From the IMG/VR virus record IMGVR_UViG_3300035698_015907: a stretch of 64,000 nt of DNA. The stretch is one strand, 5' to 3'. The position numbers were made by a program, and so were the translations under genes. The notes under the pieces are model-generated. The model was not told where the DNA came from. It saw only the letters and a list, made by a program, of their open reading frames with translations, and did not search any database. The stretch is from a virus. Within the stretch, counting starts at the first letter, position 1. Each line of letters starts with the position of its first letter. Of this stretch, positions 9,649-29,656 are shown piece by piece.

Positions 9649-9656
9649 TATTTATA
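9649..9656 (-). promoter_or_regulatory. Late promoter for gene 23
   Basis: TATAAATA followed by an AGGAGA Shine-Dalgarno site. Confidence 0.88.
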
Positions 9657-19900: not shown

Positions 19901-22417
19901 TTACCCGTTCGGGGTTATGAGCTCGGTGAATGCTACACCAGTTGGGGTAGCAATAAAGTTCAGGGTTATGAAGTTGATGCTCCTAGCCGGCTTGATATAA
20001 ATGTCTCCGACAAACTCATTCCTGTCAATTACGTCAGGAGGATTGTTTGTTGAGTCACATACAACTAAGAAGTCAGTGATACCTCTTCTACCCTGTACTG
20101 TTCTTAGATACGGGATCACTAGATTTCTAAAGGCTGCTCTAGTGAAGGCATCATTGAATTCGAATAGGATATACCTAGCCGAGGCAGAGATTGACTTCTC
20201 AAGAACTATAAAGAGTCTACGAACATTAATTCTATCAAAAGCTGATGGCTTAGCAAGAAGGGTCTTATCTCCTAGTAGAAGATGTCCTTCACCCTTCATA
20301 TTAATAACCGGGTTAACTCCATTCTTATAGAGTAGATCCCTGTCAGCTTTACGAGGATTGTAAGCCAAACGAATAATATTCTTTATCTTACCTCTATTTA
20401 GGCCAGCTGGAGACCACCAAGCATCATTTGTATGCTCTGTTCTTGCAGTTAATCCAGCCATATCACCATTAAGTGGAATATACCTGTATAGATTATTATA
20501 TCTATCGTAAGTATATTTGTATCCAGAGTCTAAGAATGCATAAGATGTACTTCTTAGAGTATCTCTGAATGATACAACATCAACAGCTTCACTGCCTTCA
20601 TTATTAACAACGTCGCCTCTATCTGGTGATACAAACACAACACAATCTTTTCTGACTTCAGCAATGTTATCAATTAGATAATTGGCAAGCTGTCCACCTG
20701 CAGTTCCGCCTCTTGCTTTACCAGCAATTAGGAGAGATACATCAACTTCTTCACCTGGAACATATAGGTCCCAAGCATTAGATAGAACACCGATAGCAAT
20801 AGTTGATTCATCAGAACCATCAGTACCATACTTGAATGAACTCGTTAGAGGAGTGTCATTTATAGATGAAGCTATATTAGCACCGTTTGCTGAAGCTGCG
20901 CCAGACCTATCATTAACAATCCAAACATACTTAGATGTCTGATTGATTTCAGTCTTATAATAGTTTGGCTGACCATCTTCTGATGTAGAGTCAGTAGCTC
21001 TTGAAAGCTTTTCGAACTTCTCAAGAATACTTCCTGGTACACCAGTGAATTTGCCATCCTCATCAACAACCACTACGTGAATTTCGTCATTGGCTGATGT
21101 GTTACCATTACCTAGAACGTATGAAGTTTGTCCAGGTGCAACATCAAATACATCAAAGAACTCCCACTTCCTCTGAATTGAGGTGAGTGAAGTATTTTGT
21201 GACTTCTTATACTTATCTTCTAAAGATAGATTAAAGGAAGCCGTAGTACCAGATATTGGAGCCCAATCAGATGCAGTATTAGTGAAAGCACCGTTAGTTT
21301 CTAGGACCGCAGTATTTGAATCTGCAACACTTGCTATCTTATGAGTTGTATAAGATGTAGCATTAGAGAATACTGCAATAAAGTCGCCTGCATCTAATAA
21401 AGCAAATGCACCATTATCAGAATCTACGGCTGTAGTACCAGATGATACATTGATTGTGTCAGCAGAATTTGCTGAGATTGTAACATTTGAAACACTTCCT
21501 ACTGCAGTAACTTTGATGTGCTGCTGACCAACAAGAGTATTTCCTGATACTATAACATCTCCAACTGATACGTCAGCTATAACGGCTGCTGCAAAAGAGT
21601 TGAATGTGTTAACATCAAAGGTTGTTAGATCCGAATTAGCACCGATTGAAACTGTTGCAGTATTCGAGTCAACACCGAATGATATATTACCAGTCAAATT
21701 TCCTGTATTGCTTAGGCCGATGTTTGACTCAAACGAACTTGAAGAGTCACAAACAGAAATCTTAAGAGAATTTCCGATAGCACCTGGCCATTTAGCAATG
21801 AAAACCACATCAGAATCAAAGTCTGAAGAGTCGAATTTAGTATCGAAGGAATCACCAGTCTTAATAATCTGATTTGTTAGATTAGAAACTGCTGCAGTGT
21901 TTACTATAGCATTATAAGTTGTAGTATTTGAAACAAACTGCAATGAAACTGCTTCCTCATTCGCAAAAGCATCACTTGATGATGCTAGAGAAATATGAGT
22001 TGCATTGGTTACAGTAATTGTAGTTCCAACATTGATTGAGGATACATTAGAAGCAGCCATTAGGATCATGCCATTTGATAGGCTTGATGTGTTACCGACT
22101 GAAACTGAAGTATTTCCTAGTTCAATATTTGCAGTAACGATAGGAGATACTCCAGTCGTATTAGCTGCTCTTGTTACCCACAGGGAAGAAGCATAAGCTA
22201 GAAAGCCTGCTGCGGAAAAGAATGTTTCTGGGTTAATATTTGTCGGTTTGCCGAACCTGTTAATGAGATTAGCTTCAGAGTCAATTAAAACTCTTTCGTT
22301 AACTGGGCCCCAGCGGAATACACCCGCAGTTGCTCCGAAAGCGGTAGCTTCACCCGGCACACGCAGGGTCTCATCTCTCTCGTTGGTGACAACACCCGGG
22401 CTTATCTGAAAGGCCAT
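19901..22417 (-). CDS. 18: Tail sheath protein gp18, enlarged by internal insertions
   Basis: SPGV...E.D, WGPV, WWSPAG.NRG, FDRINVRRLF and IYIKPARSINFI.LNF. Confidence 0.98.
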   Translation of the reverse strand: MAFQISPGVVTNERDETLRVPGEATAFGATAGVFRWGPVNERVLIDSEANLINRFGKPTNINPETFFSAAGFLAYASSLWVTRAANTTGVSPIVTANIELGNTSVSVGNTSSLSNGMILMAASNVSSINVGTTITVTNATHISLASSSDAFANEEAVSLQFVSNTTTYNAIVNTAAVSNLTNQIIKTGDSFDTKFDSSDFDSDVVFIAKWPGAIGNSLKISVCDSSSSFESNIGLSNTGNLTGNISFGVDSNTATVSIGANSDLTTFDVNTFNSFAAAVIADVSVGDVIVSGNTLVGQQHIKVTAVGSVSNVTISANSADTINVSSGTTAVDSDNGAFALLDAGDFIAVFSNATSYTTHKIASVADSNTAVLETNGAFTNTASDWAPISGTTASFNLSLEDKYKKSQNTSLTSIQRKWEFFDVFDVAPGQTSYVLGNGNTSANDEIHVVVVDEDGKFTGVPGSILEKFEKLSRATDSTSEDGQPNYYKTEINQTSKYVWIVNDRSGAASANGANIASSINDTPLTSSFKYGTDGSDESTIAIGVLSNAWDLYVPGEEVDVSLLIAGKARGGTAGGQLANYLIDNIAEVRKDCVVFVSPDRGDVVNNEGSEAVDVVSFRDTLRSTSYAFLDSGYKYTYDRYNNLYRYIPLNGDMAGLTARTEHTNDAWWSPAGLNRGKIKNIIRLAYNPRKADRDLLYKNGVNPVINMKGEGHLLLGDKTLLAKPSAFDRINVRRLFIVLEKSISASARYILFEFNDAFTRAAFRNLVIPYLRTVQGRRGITDFLVVCDSTNNPPDVIDRNEFVGDIYIKPARSINFITLNFIATPTGVAFTELITPNG

Positions 22418-22449: not shown

Positions 22450-22457
22450 TATTTATA
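22450..22457 (-). promoter_or_regulatory. Late promoter for gene 18
   Basis: TATAAATA, then AAGGAG. Confidence 0.88.
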
Positions 22458-22461
22458 CGAG

Positions 22462-25173
22462 CTACGTATTCACTTCTGTCCACAAATCTGGTCCAGATTT
22501 TATAACAGAATCATTGTCGCGGCCCGTGCTTATTATACCAAAAGGAACAACTTCTTCCTCTATAGCATCAGAACCCATTTGATATATGGATTTTACAACG
22601 TCAGTATTTGTTAGGTCTCTAAAATATGGTTGAGAAGATACCCAAGCAAATAATACACAGCACATTACTAGATCATCATTTCCTCTCTCAGCCTCATAGT
22701 GGCCTGTTTTTGTGAGAGAGAAACGAGTTAATTCAGAATAGATATTCAAATCTGATATATCAAGCTGATCAACTTCTATCATAGACTTTAGATTTGCACA
22801 TCCAAGTCTTTTAACTGTTTTAGTAGTCTTAACTCCAAGCTGAGATTTAGACACACCAAATCCAGATGAAATTTCGTGATTTTTGGTTCTCGCAGCAGTC
22901 ATAATGATATTTTCGTATTCTATATCATTATGAAGTATATCTACTACTTGATGTCCTAGATCGTTAGTTTCGATTAATAGCTGAGCATTGTTGAAATATG
23001 TAGCAGCTTCCATTATATACTTCGGATATAGTATAGAGCTTACTGTATTATTCCTAAATGTACATACTACTTTATAAGGAACAGATGATGTATCAAATAC
23101 AACAAATGCAGAATAATCTTGTCCTGAACCATGACTAGTATCAATCACTATCATATAAGAATGTGATCGATCTGCCTGTTCAAAGAATTTGAAACCGTCT
23201 GGTGTCCAATGAATAGGTTCTTTTTGGGTGCCTTCCATCATTGTTAACTTAGAACCAGATATAAGAGTCATTGAAGAACCAAGGAATTCAGTTCCGAATT
23301 CCTGAGCAAAACCTCGTTCAGTCATCAATGCAATTTGCTTCTCCTGCCAAGCATTATCTCTTCCAGGAATCATAGACCAGTGAACTTCTATGGGTTTAAA
23401 TCCATTCCACTCTGGTCGACCATTTTCGTTTGTTTGGCCCTTTTTCTTGGCTTTCGTCCAAATATTATAGAACATATTCATGCCATTTGGTGTAGAAGCT
23501 ATGAATACTTTAGTAGTCTTTCCTGAAGAAATAGTTGGAAAAACTGAGTACCAAAATTCTTCCTGGATATTATCAGGAACAATAGCAAATTCGTCAAGAA
23601 ATACGCAATTATGAACATTAATATCATTAGCTACAAAGCTATTAACATCCTCAACTTCTAATAGATCGTACACATCAGCAAGTCCATTTTGAACTTTTAA
23701 AGCTTCAGAATTTTCAGCTTTTATCCAATTATTATTTTCAAATATAAGATGATCTGGAGTACATACTATAGTTCTACCATCTTTATATGTTAAATGTATA
23801 GTTTCTCTTTTAGATGTAACCTTAATTCCTTCGAATTTTTTGAATCCATCAGCAGTTAAGACGCGTAATTGGCCTTCTTTAAGCTTTTGTTCCAAGGAAT
23901 TCGACCTTTCGCTGCTTCGCTCATTTTTTTCTTTGAAGCTTCTGATCTCTTCGAACCAAGATTCTTTTGCGCTGTTTTCTGTATTTTTTCTGGATTCCGA
24001 TTTATTTTGTTTATATGATCTTCTGTTTTTTTCAGCCCCGTTAATCCATTCGATATATTCTTTCGATTCTCTTCGCTTCTTTTGAATCCTAGAAGTTTTC
24101 CTTTTAGAGAATTTGACATTTTCTTTTTCGATTCTTCTGTATGAATCCTTCCAGTCGCTGATTTCGACATTTTCTTTTTTGTTTCTTCGGTGTGAGTTGT
24201 CCCTAATCTCTGTATGCTCATGGCTTTTGATTGTTCTTGGCGTATAATCATTTTTTGAGCTTCCGTCATTTTCAACATTCTGCCTTGACTGCCAGTCATC
24301 ATTCTGTGTAAAGAAAATGACATCTTCTGATGTATTATTCCTTCCGTCATTTTCATTAAGAGTTTGTGCGCTAACAAGTGTTCTTTTACTGTTAACAGTT
24401 GCATATTCTCTTTTTTGTTCGTTCCACCCAAACATTTCGGGAAGATGTGATGATTTTCCAAATAATATAGCTCTGCTTTTGACCGACTTGGTCTCGATTT
24501 CATCAAATTGAAGTACCATGTCGCGTACTTTCCATTTTTGTACCAAGTCATATAGTTCTCCTATATTCATTTCAACTATATTATCATCTTCATCAGCTAC
24601 TGTTATTTTAGATTTGTATCCAATACAATTGATTGAATATCCTCTTACTGCTGCTGGAGAAGTAGCATTAGATAATATTCTAGAACCATTTTCTAATTCT
24701 ATAGAAGACTTGTTCCATGATACAACACCTTGCTGTAACCATGAAGGCAAAAATTCATATGATATTTTTATTCTATCAACAATTTCAATAGCTGTTGTAT
24801 GTTTGTTAGCAAGAATAGCAGTAGTATAACTTTTATTGAATAATATTGACCATAGAAGATACGCAGATGTTGTTGCAGTCTTTCCTGACTGACGACCAAT
24901 CTTACATATAACATATCTTTCTTCTTCGAAAGATCTTATAATATCTTTCTGCCAATCCCACATCTTGAAAGAAATAATGCCTTCATCAAGAGATATAATC
25001 TTTACATAATTTTCAATAAAGTAAATAGGATCTTTAGCACACTTAACGTATTCTTCAACTTGTTCTAATGTGAATTGAATTCTTACGCTAGGCTTTTTGA
25101 CTTTAAAGTTAGGAGGATAGAAACATTCATCACCTAACTCTTCACTTGGTTTTCCTCTATTATCATTCATCAT
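22462..25173 (-). CDS. 17: Large terminase gp17 containing an intein (563 aa after splicing)
   Basis: KCAKDPIYF, GRQSGKT, Walker B region split as RGYSIN / CVFLDEFA, STPNG, nuclease motifs IDTS.G.GQDYS and NDDLVM. Confidence 0.97.
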   Translation of the reverse strand: MMNDNRGKPSEELGDECFYPPNFKVKKPSVRIQFTLEQVEEYVKCAKDPIYFIENYVKIISLDEGIISFKMWDWQKDIIRSFEEERYVICKIGRQSGKTATTSAYLLWSILFNKSYTTAILANKHTTAIEIVDRIKISYEFLPSWLQQGVVSWNKSSIELENGSRILSNATSPAAVRGYSINCIGYKSKITVADEDDNIVEMNIGELYDLVQKWKVRDMVLQFDEIETKSVKSRAILFGKSSHLPEMFGWNEQKREYATVNSKRTLVSAQTLNENDGRNNTSEDVIFFTQNDDWQSRQNVENDGSSKNDYTPRTIKSHEHTEIRDNSHRRNKKENVEISDWKDSYRRIEKENVKFSKRKTSRIQKKRRESKEYIEWINGAEKNRRSYKQNKSESRKNTENSAKESWFEEIRSFKEKNERSSERSNSLEQKLKEGQLRVLTADGFKKFEGIKVTSKRETIHLTYKDGRTIVCTPDHLIFENNNWIKAENSEALKVQNGLADVYDLLEVEDVNSFVANDINVHNCVFLDEFAIVPDNIQEEFWYSVFPTISSGKTTKVFIASTPNGMNMFYNIWTKAKKKGQTNENGRPEWNGFKPIEVHWSMIPGRDNAWQEKQIALMTERGFAQEFGTEFLGSSMTLISGSKLTMMEGTQKEPIHWTPDGFKFFEQADRSHSYMIVIDTSHGSGQDYSAFVVFDTSSVPYKVVCTFRNNTVSSILYPKYIMEAATYFNNAQLLIETNDLGHQVVDILHNDIEYENIIMTAARTKNHEISSGFGVSKSQLGVKTTKTVKRLGCANLKSMIEVDQLDISDLNIYSELTRFSLTKTGHYEAERGNDDLVMCCVLFAWVSSQPYFRDLTNTDVVKSIYQMGSDAIEEEVVPFGIISTGRDNDSVIKSGPDLWTEVNT
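23608..24627 (-). mobile_element. Intein, 340 aa (gp17 residues 183-522), inserted just before Walker B
   Basis: Block A CIGYKSKI; block B CTPDHLIF; block F DVYDLLEV; block G VANDINVHN followed by Cys+1. Removal restores GYSIN-CVFLDE. Confidence 0.95.
23856..24551 (-). CDS. HNH homing endonuclease with NUMOD3 repeats, nested in the +1 frame inside the intein
   Basis: ENHHIFPKCLGGTN..ENMQLLT.KEH..AH.LL followed by HTEETKKKMS-type repeats; AGGAGA 5 nt before the ATG. Confidence 0.92.
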   Translation of the reverse strand: MTWYKNGKYATWYFNLMKSRPSRSKAELYYLENHHIFPKCLGGTNKKENMQLLTVKEHLLAHKLLMKMTEGIIHQKMSFSLHRMMTGSQGRMLKMTEAQKMIIRQEQSKAMSIQRLGTTHTEETKKKMSKSATGRIHTEESKKKMSNSLKGKLLGFKRSEENRKNISNGLTGLKKTEDHINKINRNPEKIQKTAQKNLGSKRSEASKKKMSEAAKGRIPWNKSLKKANYAS

Positions 25174-25624
25174 TCTTTATTTCTCTTGTTTTAGTCTGGA
25201 CTCCGTTGTCTTCTAACATTTTTTGGAGACCCTCAGTAGTTAATATCAAATTATTATTAACTGTTGTTGGACCAGTTTCTTCACCAGAAAGCTTTTCTAT
25301 TTCTACCTTTTTCTTAGATAGTTCTAATAAATCTTTGCTGCCATTAAGTATTGTAGATGTAAGAGTAGCAAGAACTTCATATATTCTAGGAGTCTGAGAT
25401 GCACGAGCTAATCCAGTAAGCTCATCAAGTGCATCTGATGCTTTCATTAGTGTATCTATCGTGGTCTGTCTAGAAAGTTCATAATCAGAATCTATTTCAG
25501 TTCTTCTGTTTCCTTCATAAACCGCAATCTGATTAGATTGCTCTTCTTTACCAAGATCACTTTCTATTCCTAGAGACTCTGATAAAGGGTCCCATATCTT
25601 CTTATTTTTTTCATTTTCACTCAT
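25163..25624 (-). CDS. 16: Small terminase gp16
   Basis: DYELSR, PRIYEV and TVNNNL...T..LQKML; immediately upstream of gene 17. Confidence 0.92.
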   Translation of the reverse strand: MSENEKNKKIWDPLSESLGIESDLGKEEQSNQIAVYEGNRRTEIDSDYELSRQTTIDTLMKASDALDELTGLARASQTPRIYEVLATLTSTILNGSKDLLELSKKKVEIEKLSGEETGPTTVNNNLILTTEGLQKMLEDNGVQTKTREIKNDE

Positions 25625-27982: not shown

Positions 27983-27990
27983 TATTTATC
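27983..27990 (-). promoter_or_regulatory. Late promoter for gene 13
   Basis: GATAAATA, then AGGAGG. Confidence 0.7.
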
Positions 27991-29656
27991 AGTCTTGAGA
28001 AATGATCAAATCTGTAGATTGAATTTTCCTATATCCACGAAGTTTTAAACGACTAGGATAACTATATGAATTACTATTTAGTACATTAGAAGAATATCCT
28101 GATGCAATAACAAGAGTTGGATAATTATGATTTGGAACTTTTAGATTATTCGTTACATAATTGTATCTAATTGTTATATCATTGAATGCAGGGCGCCATG
28201 ATAGATCGCCAACTATTACTGATGTATCATCGGCTTCTGTATAATTAGAAGATCCAGTCCAATAAACACTAGCTATAGAAGTTAATGTATCAGCATCTTC
28301 AGAATATTCAATAGAACCATTTCTAAGAATCGTAGCAAAAGAATATATTGTATCATCAGATTCTGTTATAGCTATAAATGCTTGAACTAATAGCTGGCCA
28401 TCAGAAGATATACTATCATCTTCTTCAGATACTGATGTTATTGCTGATACAATTAGATTAGCGCTAGAATTTAATGTATCATCTTCTTCAGATATATTAA
28501 CATTACCATTTATGATAATTGCTGCGCCAGATATAGCAGTATCATCAGCTTCGGTATATGTTATTGAAGCTTTTATTAATAGTTCAGAAGATGAATTTAG
28601 AGTATCATTAGCTTCAGTATATTCTACAGAAGCATTAGTAGTATTGATAGCAGAAGCTGAAGCAGTATCATCTGCTTCAGTATATTCAACTGTACCATTT
28701 GTAATATTAATAGCTGAAGCTGAAGTGGTATCAGCAGCTTCTGTATAAGTTACTGATCCTTTGATTAATAGTTCTGAATCAGAGCTAAGAGTGTCGCTAG
28801 CTTCTGTATAAGTTACTGTTCCCTGAAGCAACACTATTGCAACAAAAGAAACTGTATCATCAGCTTCAGTATATTCTATGGAAGCATTAGTAATATTGAT
28901 AGCAGAAGCTGAAGCAGTGTCACTAGCTTCTGTATAAGAAGTTGTAGCTTCTATTAATAGATCTGAAACTGATGTAAGAGTATCAGCAGCTTCTGTATAA
29001 GAAGTTGTAGCTTCTATTAATAGATCTGATGATGAGGTAAGAGTATCAGCAGCTTCTGTATAAGAAACTGTAGCATTAATTAAAAGATCTGATGAAGAAG
29101 TAAGAGTATCATTTGCTTCTGTGTATTCAACAACAGCATTAATTAATAGCGCTGCAGTGGATGATATAGTATCATCAGCTTCAGTATATTCTATGGAAGC
29201 ATTAGTAATATTGATAGCAGAAGCTGAAGCTGAAGCAGTGTCACTAGCTTCTGTATAAGAAGTTGTAGCTTCTATTAATAGATCTGAAACTGATGTAAGA
29301 GTATCAGCAGCTTCTGTGTATTCAACAACAGCATTAATTAATAGCGCTGCAGTGGATGATATAGTATCATCAGCTTCAGTATAAGAAGTTGTAGCTTCTA
29401 TTAATAGATCTGATGAAGATGATATAGTATCATCAGCTTCAGTATAAGAAGTTGTAGCTTCTATTAATAGATCTGATGAAGATGATAATGTGTCGGCAGC
29501 TTCTGTATAAGAAACTGTAGCTTCTATTAATAGATCTGATGAAGATGATAATGTGTCGGCAGCTTCTGTATAAGAAACTGTAGCTTCTATAGGGGGAAGA
29601 GCACTTTCCTCTACAGAACCATATGGTATAGAACCGTATGGAAAGCCACCGAACAT
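27989..29656 (-). CDS. Acidic 21-aa repeat protein, putative neck or head fibre
   Basis: About 20 copies of a LLIEATxSYTEAADTLSSSSD-type unit; sits directly upstream of gene 13, where T4 has wac. Confidence 0.6.
   Translation of the reverse strand: MFGGFPYGSIPYGSVEESALPPIEATVSYTEAADTLSSSSDLLIEATVSYTEAADTLSSSSDLLIEATTSYTEADDTISSSSDLLIEATTSYTEADDTISSTAALLINAVVEYTEAADTLTSVSDLLIEATTSYTEASDTASASASAINITNASIEYTEADDTISSTAALLINAVVEYTEANDTLTSSSDLLINATVSYTEAADTLTSSSDLLIEATTSYTEAADTLTSVSDLLIEATTSYTEASDTASASAINITNASIEYTEADDTVSFVAIVLLQGTVTYTEASDTLSSDSELLIKGSVTYTEAADTTSASAINITNGTVEYTEADDTASASAINTTNASVEYTEANDTLNSSSELLIKASITYTEADDTAISGAAIIINGNVNISEEDDTLNSSANLIVSAITSVSEEDDSISSDGQLLVQAFIAITESDDTIYSFATILRNGSIEYSEDADTLTSIASVYWTGSSNYTEADDTSVIVGDLSWRPAFNDITIRYNYVTNNLKVPNHNYPTLVIASGYSSNVLNSNSYSYPSRLKLRGYRKIQSTDLIISQD
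28230..29592 (-). repeat. Coding tandem repeat with a period near 63 nt
   Basis: Exact 63-nt duplications near 29380-29590, degenerating toward the gene's 3' end. Confidence 0.92.

Follow-up and report, generated by a model that had tools for sequence, protein, structure and literature searches.

We analyzed a stretch of viral DNA of 64,000 nucleotides (nt; IMG/VR virus record IMGVR_UViG_3300035698_015907, here called the window), in which the gene for the gp17 terminase large subunit contains an intein and the same DNA, read in the +1 frame, contains the gene for an HNH-NUMOD3 homing endonuclease. From the sequences we have good confidence that this element is real and probably functional in both frames, with two functions divided between two reading frames of a mobile intein. 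A preliminary description of this DNA had already spoken of a two-frame composite mobile element, and that view is borne out by a complete avoidance of terminase-frame stop codons and by a homing signature in relatives.

A nuclease gene in the +1 frame of an intein

The gp17 gene (22462..25173, minus strand, as are all features located here) encodes a T4-like terminase precursor of 903 amino acids (aa) in one uninterrupted frame. As the preliminary description held, this frame includes a contiguous intein of 340 aa (23608..24627; gp17 aa 183-522), which runs from Cys1 to a His-Asn pair followed by Cys+1, just before the Walker B motif. It is flanked by the N-extein (24628..25173; aa 1-182, with Walker A and the ATPase's N-terminal portion) and the C-extein (22462..23607; Cys+1, Walker B and the nuclease domain). 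All class 1 intein (HINT) residues are found (C1, T290, H293, D321, H339-N340 and Cys+1), and C1, T290, H293 and D321 are invariant across 30 aligned inteins. The splicing domain consists of an N-part of about 30 aa (24538..24627; block A plus the first strands and helix) and a C-part (23608..23877; block B Thr-x-x-His, block F Asp and block G His-Asn). In the AlphaFold model intein residues 1-30 and 251-340 fold with a predicted local distance difference test score (pLDDT) of 85-97, and comparison with solved inteins gives a Z score of 17.4 at a root-mean-square deviation (rmsd) of 1.8 over 120 aligned residues for the VidaL intein. The best PDB sequence match of the part behind the insert is CatC, the large fragment of Cat, a consensus of the atypically split TerL inteins (E value 3e-5), which also aligns structurally to model residues 239-340 (Z score 10.9); a PDB sequence search with the short N-part gave no match. 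On the basis of the model and the motifs, the precursor would be spliced in cis by the class 1 pathway to a terminase of 563 aa, and related split inteins of the terminase large subunit (TerL) have been reported to splice (PMC11766414).

The nuclease gene (23856..24551; 231 aa) begins with an ATG 76 nt inside the intein, which places it in the +1 frame relative to gp17, and it overlaps the edges of both splicing halves (its 3' end covers the first 22 nt of the C-part). That this is a clean open reading frame (ORF) for an HNH plus NUMOD3 endonuclease was rightly seen before: the NUMOD3 model PF07460 matches three stretches (E value 3.8e-14, 52.7 bits against a cut-off of 20.4), with the best DNA-binding repeat at nuclease aa 134-167 (24051..24152), and the protein matches the homing endonuclease family phrog_655 with an E value of 1e-30. 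The HNH catalytic motif spans aa 32-62 (24366..24458), where E32, H34, H35, N49, H58 and H62 do not vary among 11 aligned relatives. Two results count against this assignment: the Pfam HNH match (E value 0.012) stays below its cut-off, and fold searches with the nuclease gave local HNH matches only, none of them significant (for example, rmsd 0.6 over 34 columns). The terminase-frame translation of the overlap is indeed as featureless as had been noted (K/E/S/R/N-rich, with pLDDT below 50 over intein aa 45-245). Also consistent with the preliminary description, the nuclease has its own ATG start, and the terminase-frame reading appears to be filler that splicing would discard.

One point missed earlier is the position of the insert, which lies between block A and block B, at an atypical split position outside the usual endonuclease loop. 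The N-terminal splicing model TIGR01445 covers the insert point without a break in the mini-intein P0009. A canonical bifunctional intein has an in-frame endonuclease between blocks B and F, whereas the nuclease found here is in the +1 frame and before block B. The layout is also different from that of a fractured gene, in which the intein halves are on two ORFs: in the window one frame of 903 codons holds both. The comparison with intein-less and mini-intein alleles that had been suggested could be made: empty alleles are colinear over the insertion point (P0120-P0125, C-extein 63-76% identical, as well as cyanophage terminases), and mini-inteins are available in L197, L205 and P0009.

Relatives were gathered by an intein search, followed by alignment-driven scans and classification, and were grouped in clusters sharing less than 90% nt identity. 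The intein search returned terminases with similarity over the apparent filler, and their DNA has the same nuclease in the +1 frame. This overprinted layout is present in 28 clusters (including the window); it is contiguous in all of them, always in the +1 frame and at one site before Walker B, and the HNH motif is kept in 27. Searches of viral contigs with the single nuclease yielded distant relatives only, none of them overprinted in the terminase frame, and with full gp17 no matches were obtained, so that queries built from alignments were needed instead.

A nuclease codon with T at its third position creates a stop in the terminase frame if it is followed by a codon that begins with AA, AG or GA. 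Such sites were counted as stop-risk junctions where the amino acid permits T, and the remaining comparison sites were taken as safe. In the window nuclease, T is found at 0 of 49 stop-risk junctions against 40 of 98 safe sites; for the 28 clusters pooled this is 0 of 1519 against 1372 of 2994 (46%). Recoding the nuclease with the codon usage of the phage (20,000 trials) introduced on average 25.9 terminase-frame stops with a minimum of 13, and after shuffling of its own synonymous codons (20,000 trials) the minimum was 4. Since neither procedure ever reaches zero stops, the terminase frame is open beyond chance. Among 143 homologous nuclease genes outside the overprinted group, the median is 27.6 stops per 230 codons in the same frame; the number drops as the guanine-cytosine (GC) content rises, down to 5.8 at 58% GC (one further overprinted case aside). 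The split form L087, described below, has no deficit of T (26 of 70 against 38 of 113). A 'GC-rich remnant' as a simple cause of the stop avoidance was considered and rejected, as 41-49% of the safe third positions are T in most copies.

Protein identity among relatives is 41-67% in the nuclease frame against 21-37% in the terminase frame, and the third positions of nuclease codons are the most variable. For close pairs, the ratios of synonymous to non-synonymous substitutions are 14/3, 10/2 and 27/7 in the nuclease frame against 1/16, 1/11 and 2/33 in the terminase frame. Because of the absence of T at stop-risk sites, the identity gap, the substitution pattern and the retention of the HNH motif, we conclude that both frames are under selection: judged by these patterns, selection in the nuclease frame acts on the protein, and in the terminase frame only on its staying open. 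A separate 231-aa endonuclease is presumably translated from this open and selected +1 frame. Gene callers give only one of the two proteins, and consequently such inteins are misread as decayed.

An in-frame nuclease domain displaced by two compensating indels during assembly would resemble this layout, and this explanation is refuted. Contigs of four other sequencing runs jointly span the entire intein with 0 differences and 0 indels, for which reason the two-frame layout is not an assembly error; the +1 frame is common to 27 other clusters, in which both frames are open, and an artefact would not purge some 26 stops. Neither the compensating indels nor the lack of two-frame homologs of which the preliminary description had warned was thus encountered. 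A joint skipping the intein, as expected for an empty allele, was not found in the four DNA runs, where contigs show presence only. The sequencing runs that contain the window sequence are salt-lake metagenomes.

It might also be argued that the insert is removed at the RNA level, as an intron in which an HNH gene is embedded, or that the terminase is formed by a trans-spliced pair arising from an internal restart. HNH-NUMOD3 genes are common in phage introns, and split versions exist at the site (L087 and L204). An open terminase frame would be unneeded in either case, yet T is absent from all stop-risk sites; the intein motifs and fold are complete, and no group I or II covariance-model match was obtained up to an E value of 1 (although a divergent intron could escape such a search). 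We therefore consider both schemes highly improbable.

States at the site, homing and ancestry

Six states are observed at or beside the same gp17 position. In the first, a standalone nuclease gene is located directly upstream of an intein-less gp17 (L088, L090, L101). In the second the intein is split with a free nuclease between the halves, either of the overprinted clade (L087) or of the GIY-YIG type (L204), and in the third it is split with the nuclease fused in frame to the N-half (HNH in L086 and L258; GIY-YIG in L126, L209, L218 and L222). The fourth is the contiguous overprinted form of the window and 27 other clusters. The fifth is a decayed form, L084 (2526-3395), where 246 nt including the HNH core are deleted between short direct repeats and both frames are open; its remaining intein is identical to that of L081, with exteins that differ by about 3%. 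The sixth state consists of mini-inteins: L197 and L205 arose by deletion from the L081 and L207 types, P0009 has retained a few residues of the former filler, and a mini-intein of the L212 type is also present at the site.

Further arrangements were seen in the same genes. At the Walker B site L126, L209, L210, L218 and L222 share a recurrent split intein, of which the C-half ORF begins right after the stop of the GIY-YIG fusion. In L086 (3001-4447) the HNH nuclease is in frame with the N-extein and the intein N-half, with a frameshift near the end that may be an assembly indel or belong to a genuine fused split form. An additional overprinted HNH-NUMOD3 gene is located in L210 (1-870), within another intein of this terminase, just after Walker A (T at 0 of 75 stop-risk against 61 of 129 safe sites; the contig begins inside the gene), and at the Walker B site of that terminase gene the intein is split and fused to a GIY-YIG nuclease. 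In L223, L227 and L234 (by tblastn also in L236-L250) one or two split inteins interrupt a T4-like terminase, at the Walker B site and at a third site; their N-halves are short, and an ORF lies in between. In L029 (2814-3860) an antisense stretch of 349 codons is open over a nuclease-like gene with NUMOD3 repeats, probably as a by-product of composition. The close terminase relatives P0121, P0129, P0140 and P0202 are empty at the Walker B site and carry, or apparently carry, inteins at the Walker A site; inteins are therefore gained and lost at several sites within this lineage.

Among the best matches listed, the overprinted form is absent from cultured phages. Related TerL inteins do occur in the cultured phages SRB7757, G2494, CP21 and K469 (L331-L334): inspection of these four records revealed a split terminase in CP21, G2494 and K469 (the intein C-half of CP21 being unannotated) and a short contiguous intein in SRB7757. 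These inteins could serve as bench models.

Signs of mobility are strongest in the relatives. The L081 intein is 97.9% identical to that of L179 and 97.2% to that of L190 whereas the exteins are only 73-80% identical, and short identical (co-converted) flanks adjoin the intein; likewise, the inteins of L092 and L094 are 94% identical against 78-80% for the exteins. The nuclease and extein trees conflict for L188 and for L251/L252. These patterns point to recent homing of the relatives' inteins by a nuclease outside the spliced protein, which would have done the cutting. For the window itself, the terminases most similar to its own (63-76% identical) have no intein at the site, and three starred tree nodes place its extein among empty alleles. 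Weighing against a strong claim for the window, its case relies on this nesting, and the empty alleles in the extein tree were picked for similarity to the window.

The overprinted nucleases and the split form L087 make up one clade (support 98/97, and 93/97 in a second tree), and the nearest branches are standalone and fused nucleases linked to gp17. A first test of the single clade (p 0.0001) was invalid, with four unlabelled near-copies forced outside; the redone approximately unbiased (AU) test gave a p value of 0.34, by which L087 may be either inside or sister to the overprinted clade, and this weighs against a firm choice of the route of origin. The tree of the intein domains was too poorly resolved for ordering the states. 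As far as the nuclease trees tell, the nuclease is of single descent from a free-standing HNH-NUMOD3 lineage that is often found beside gp17, in agreement with the kinship to free-standing phage genes proposed in the preliminary description.

That description had further proposed that a free-standing homing endonuclease gene invaded a mini-intein. The free-standing ancestry stands. Direct entry into a mini-intein is a weaker proposal, given that L197 and L205 derive from overprinted inteins and that the free-standing relatives have a median of 27.6 terminase-frame stops. Because a typical donor brings about 26 stops, either an unusual donor or a split-intein intermediate is required: the donor may have been rich in GC and poor in stops, or trans-splicing may have rescued a split stage, or perhaps both.

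Probable expression of the nuclease and genomic setting

In the mechanism that we propose, ribosomes on gp17 would yield the 903-aa precursor, in which the first ~30 and last ~90 intein residues would fold as a HINT domain around an unstructured loop of ~220 aa, and class 1 cis-splicing would release the mature terminase. Initiation at the internal ATG in the +1 frame would produce the HNH-NUMOD3 endonuclease as a separate protein, which in most relatives would have its own T4-type late promoter inside the intein. During mixed infection the nuclease would cut or nick a gp17 gene that lacks the intein, close to the Walker B codons, and the whole intein would then be copied into this allele by repair. 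Selection would hold the nuclease sequence in its own frame while only stops would be forbidden in the terminase frame. The nuclease lineage would have entered the intein at the atypical split position.

The window nuclease is probably translated from the terminase mRNA via an internal Shine-Dalgarno site, to judge from its upstream region. A Shine-Dalgarno-like AGGAG (24562-24558) is found 6 nt ahead of the nuclease ATG, and the same motif precedes other genes of this phage; it is part of a 6-bp hairpin (24550..24566) that also covers the start codon. Start codons of the relatives are close to the first conserved nuclease residues with a late-promoter motif just upstream, and in 20 of 28 clusters TAAATA, the core of the T4-type late promoter, is present between intein nt 61 and 140, against an expectation of 0.03 for every 80 nt of extein. 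In fractured genes, too, the nucleases are reported to have late promoters and hairpins as signals (PMC2677866). Several observations speak against such signals in the window: the hairpin is weak (-4.3 kcal/mol), a region of 111 nt folds no better than its shuffles (z -1.06), the AGGAG bases double as codons of conserved intein residues and may be a coincidence, and the intein lacks the linker of ~50 nt bearing the late-promoter motif, with no exact late promoter upstream of the nuclease. AGGAG and hairpin are consequently suggestive only as a start signal. A scan for sigma-70 promoters and terminators gave results at chance level.

The missing linker might indicate that the nuclease is no longer expressed in the window copy, so that the +1 ORF is a recent relic in an intein heading towards a mini-intein. 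Decay does occur in the family, as seen from the loss of 246 nt in L084 and the deletion-derived mini-inteins L197 and L205. Nonetheless, the window ORF is of full length with all catalytic residues despite a long private branch (0.6-0.8 substitutions per site), the AGGAG is well spaced as before other genes of the phage, and the nearest extein relatives are empty, suggesting acquisition in the lineage of the window; a relic is thus unlikely. An even smaller chance is given to +1 ribosomal frameshifting, by which the nuclease would be made as a fusion with N-extein and intein N-part, with no initiation of its own. In-frame fusions of intein N-part and nuclease are known at this site from split forms (the HNH and GIY-YIG forms of the third state), and in the window the +1 frame opens just three codons ahead of the ATG. 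The start codons and upstream late-promoter motifs of the relatives are, however, typical of independently expressed phage nucleases, and the window ATG has its AGGAG at 6 nt, both of which favor independent initiation.

The window represents the morphogenesis region of a T4-like phage, with the order gp16, gp17, tail sheath and major head protein. The upstream neighbor of gp17 is the gp16 terminase small subunit (25163..25624) and the downstream neighbor is the gp18 tail sheath (19901..22417). A late-promoter match TATAAATA is found at 22450-22457 ahead of gp18. In total there are six exact TATAAATA matches in the window (at 9649, 10885, 13808, 22450, 34698 and 58566), all on the minus strand and five of them between minus-strand genes, as T4-type late promoters would be; shuffled sequences have more matches on average. 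An ORF of 555 aa (27989-29656), located upstream of the neck genes, consists of many acidic Ala/Thr/Ser-rich repeats of ~26 aa and matches phrog_38872, a family of unknown function.

Relation to known systems and implications

The preliminary description knew of no such architecture as a described class, and here it is contradicted by two preprints. Gosselin et al. (10.1101/2025.01.02.630785) report, in the accessible portion of their text, phage and actinophage inteins whose nucleases are EndoVII-like and out of frame, or antisense; in their proposal, free-standing nucleases invaded these inteins. The likeness is close: a contiguous phage intein, a nuclease on the same strand in another frame, an unstructured in-frame translation, and terminase among the host proteins of their non-canonical group. 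Differences, as far as that portion goes, are the nuclease (EndoVII-like in 'frame 3' against HNH-NUMOD3 in frame +1 of a T4-like phage) and the insert between blocks A and B, with the nuclease ORF overlapping the edges of both splicing halves. Phillips, DeSimone and Gogarten (10.64898/2026.09.14.751524) describe, again in the part that is accessible, a cyanobacterial dnaX intein with a LAGLIDADG gene in an overlapping frame and Shine-Dalgarno motifs, for which mini-intein invasion is proposed. Like the present element, it has purifying selection on the nuclease frame and relaxed selection on that of the host, its in-frame region is disordered, and empty, mini and full alleles coexist; it differs in its bacterial chromosome, LAGLIDADG nuclease and DnaX host, and a split series at an atypical site is not reported in that part. 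The window element belongs to this non-canonical out-of-frame class, already described in the 2025-26 preprints: its host frame is open across an other-frame nuclease ORF, and the nuclease frame is under selection. The nuclease types reported for the class in the accessible text are EndoVII-like, LAGLIDADG and Vsr-like, and HNH-NUMOD3 is none of these; compared with that text, the nuclease type, the T4-like host and the position between blocks A and B are new.

In the fractured genes of Dassa et al. 2009 (PMC2677866) the two halves of a split intein flank a free-standing endonuclease, and among these split inteins that of the terminase was the one exception, with another break point. Similarities are the own start of the nuclease, the late-promoter motif, the hairpin and the 3' end overlapping the C-part of the intein, and L087 combines the fractured-gene layout with a nuclease from the clade of the window. 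In the window, on the other hand, the host frame is open over the nuclease, with one precursor and predicted cis-splicing, and their nucleases are GIY-YIG and Vsr-like. The ShiLan element (Arsenault et al. 2025, PMC11855218) is an out-of-frame HNH hidden in a phage methylase with the host frame open and signs of homing; it has no splicing domain, whereas in the window an intein would remove the filler.

The N-fragments of the AceL-TerL, Cat and GOS-TerL split inteins are 25, 30 and 37 aa, respectively (PMC11766414; PDB 6dsl). The window shares with this lineage both sequence kinship, CatC being its best match, and a break after a comparable length, as its part before the insert (~30 aa) falls within 25-37 aa. 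It differs in that the intein is contiguous and bridged by the overprinted nuclease gene; this comparison covers the inteins themselves. It is a tentative and rather doubtful idea that the contiguous, overprinted intein has long persisted as a hub at the gp17 Walker B site, from which the mini-inteins and some of the atypically split TerL inteins arose. If true, the insertion of a nuclease gene would have left its scar in the odd split point of AceL/GOS/Cat-type inteins, and inteins would evolve not only from split to fused forms but also from overprinted to split ones.

Overall, the family is a natural series, large, deeply diverged and still mobile, of a layout known mainly from recent preprints, in which some 230 codons serve two reading frames by a simple rule that can be counted (none of 1519 forbidden codon endings). 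Nearly every state of the published model for gain and loss of intein endonucleases is displayed at a single site of one essential gene, and the unusual split point of the TerL inteins that are used in biotechnology may thereby be tied to the insertion of a nuclease.

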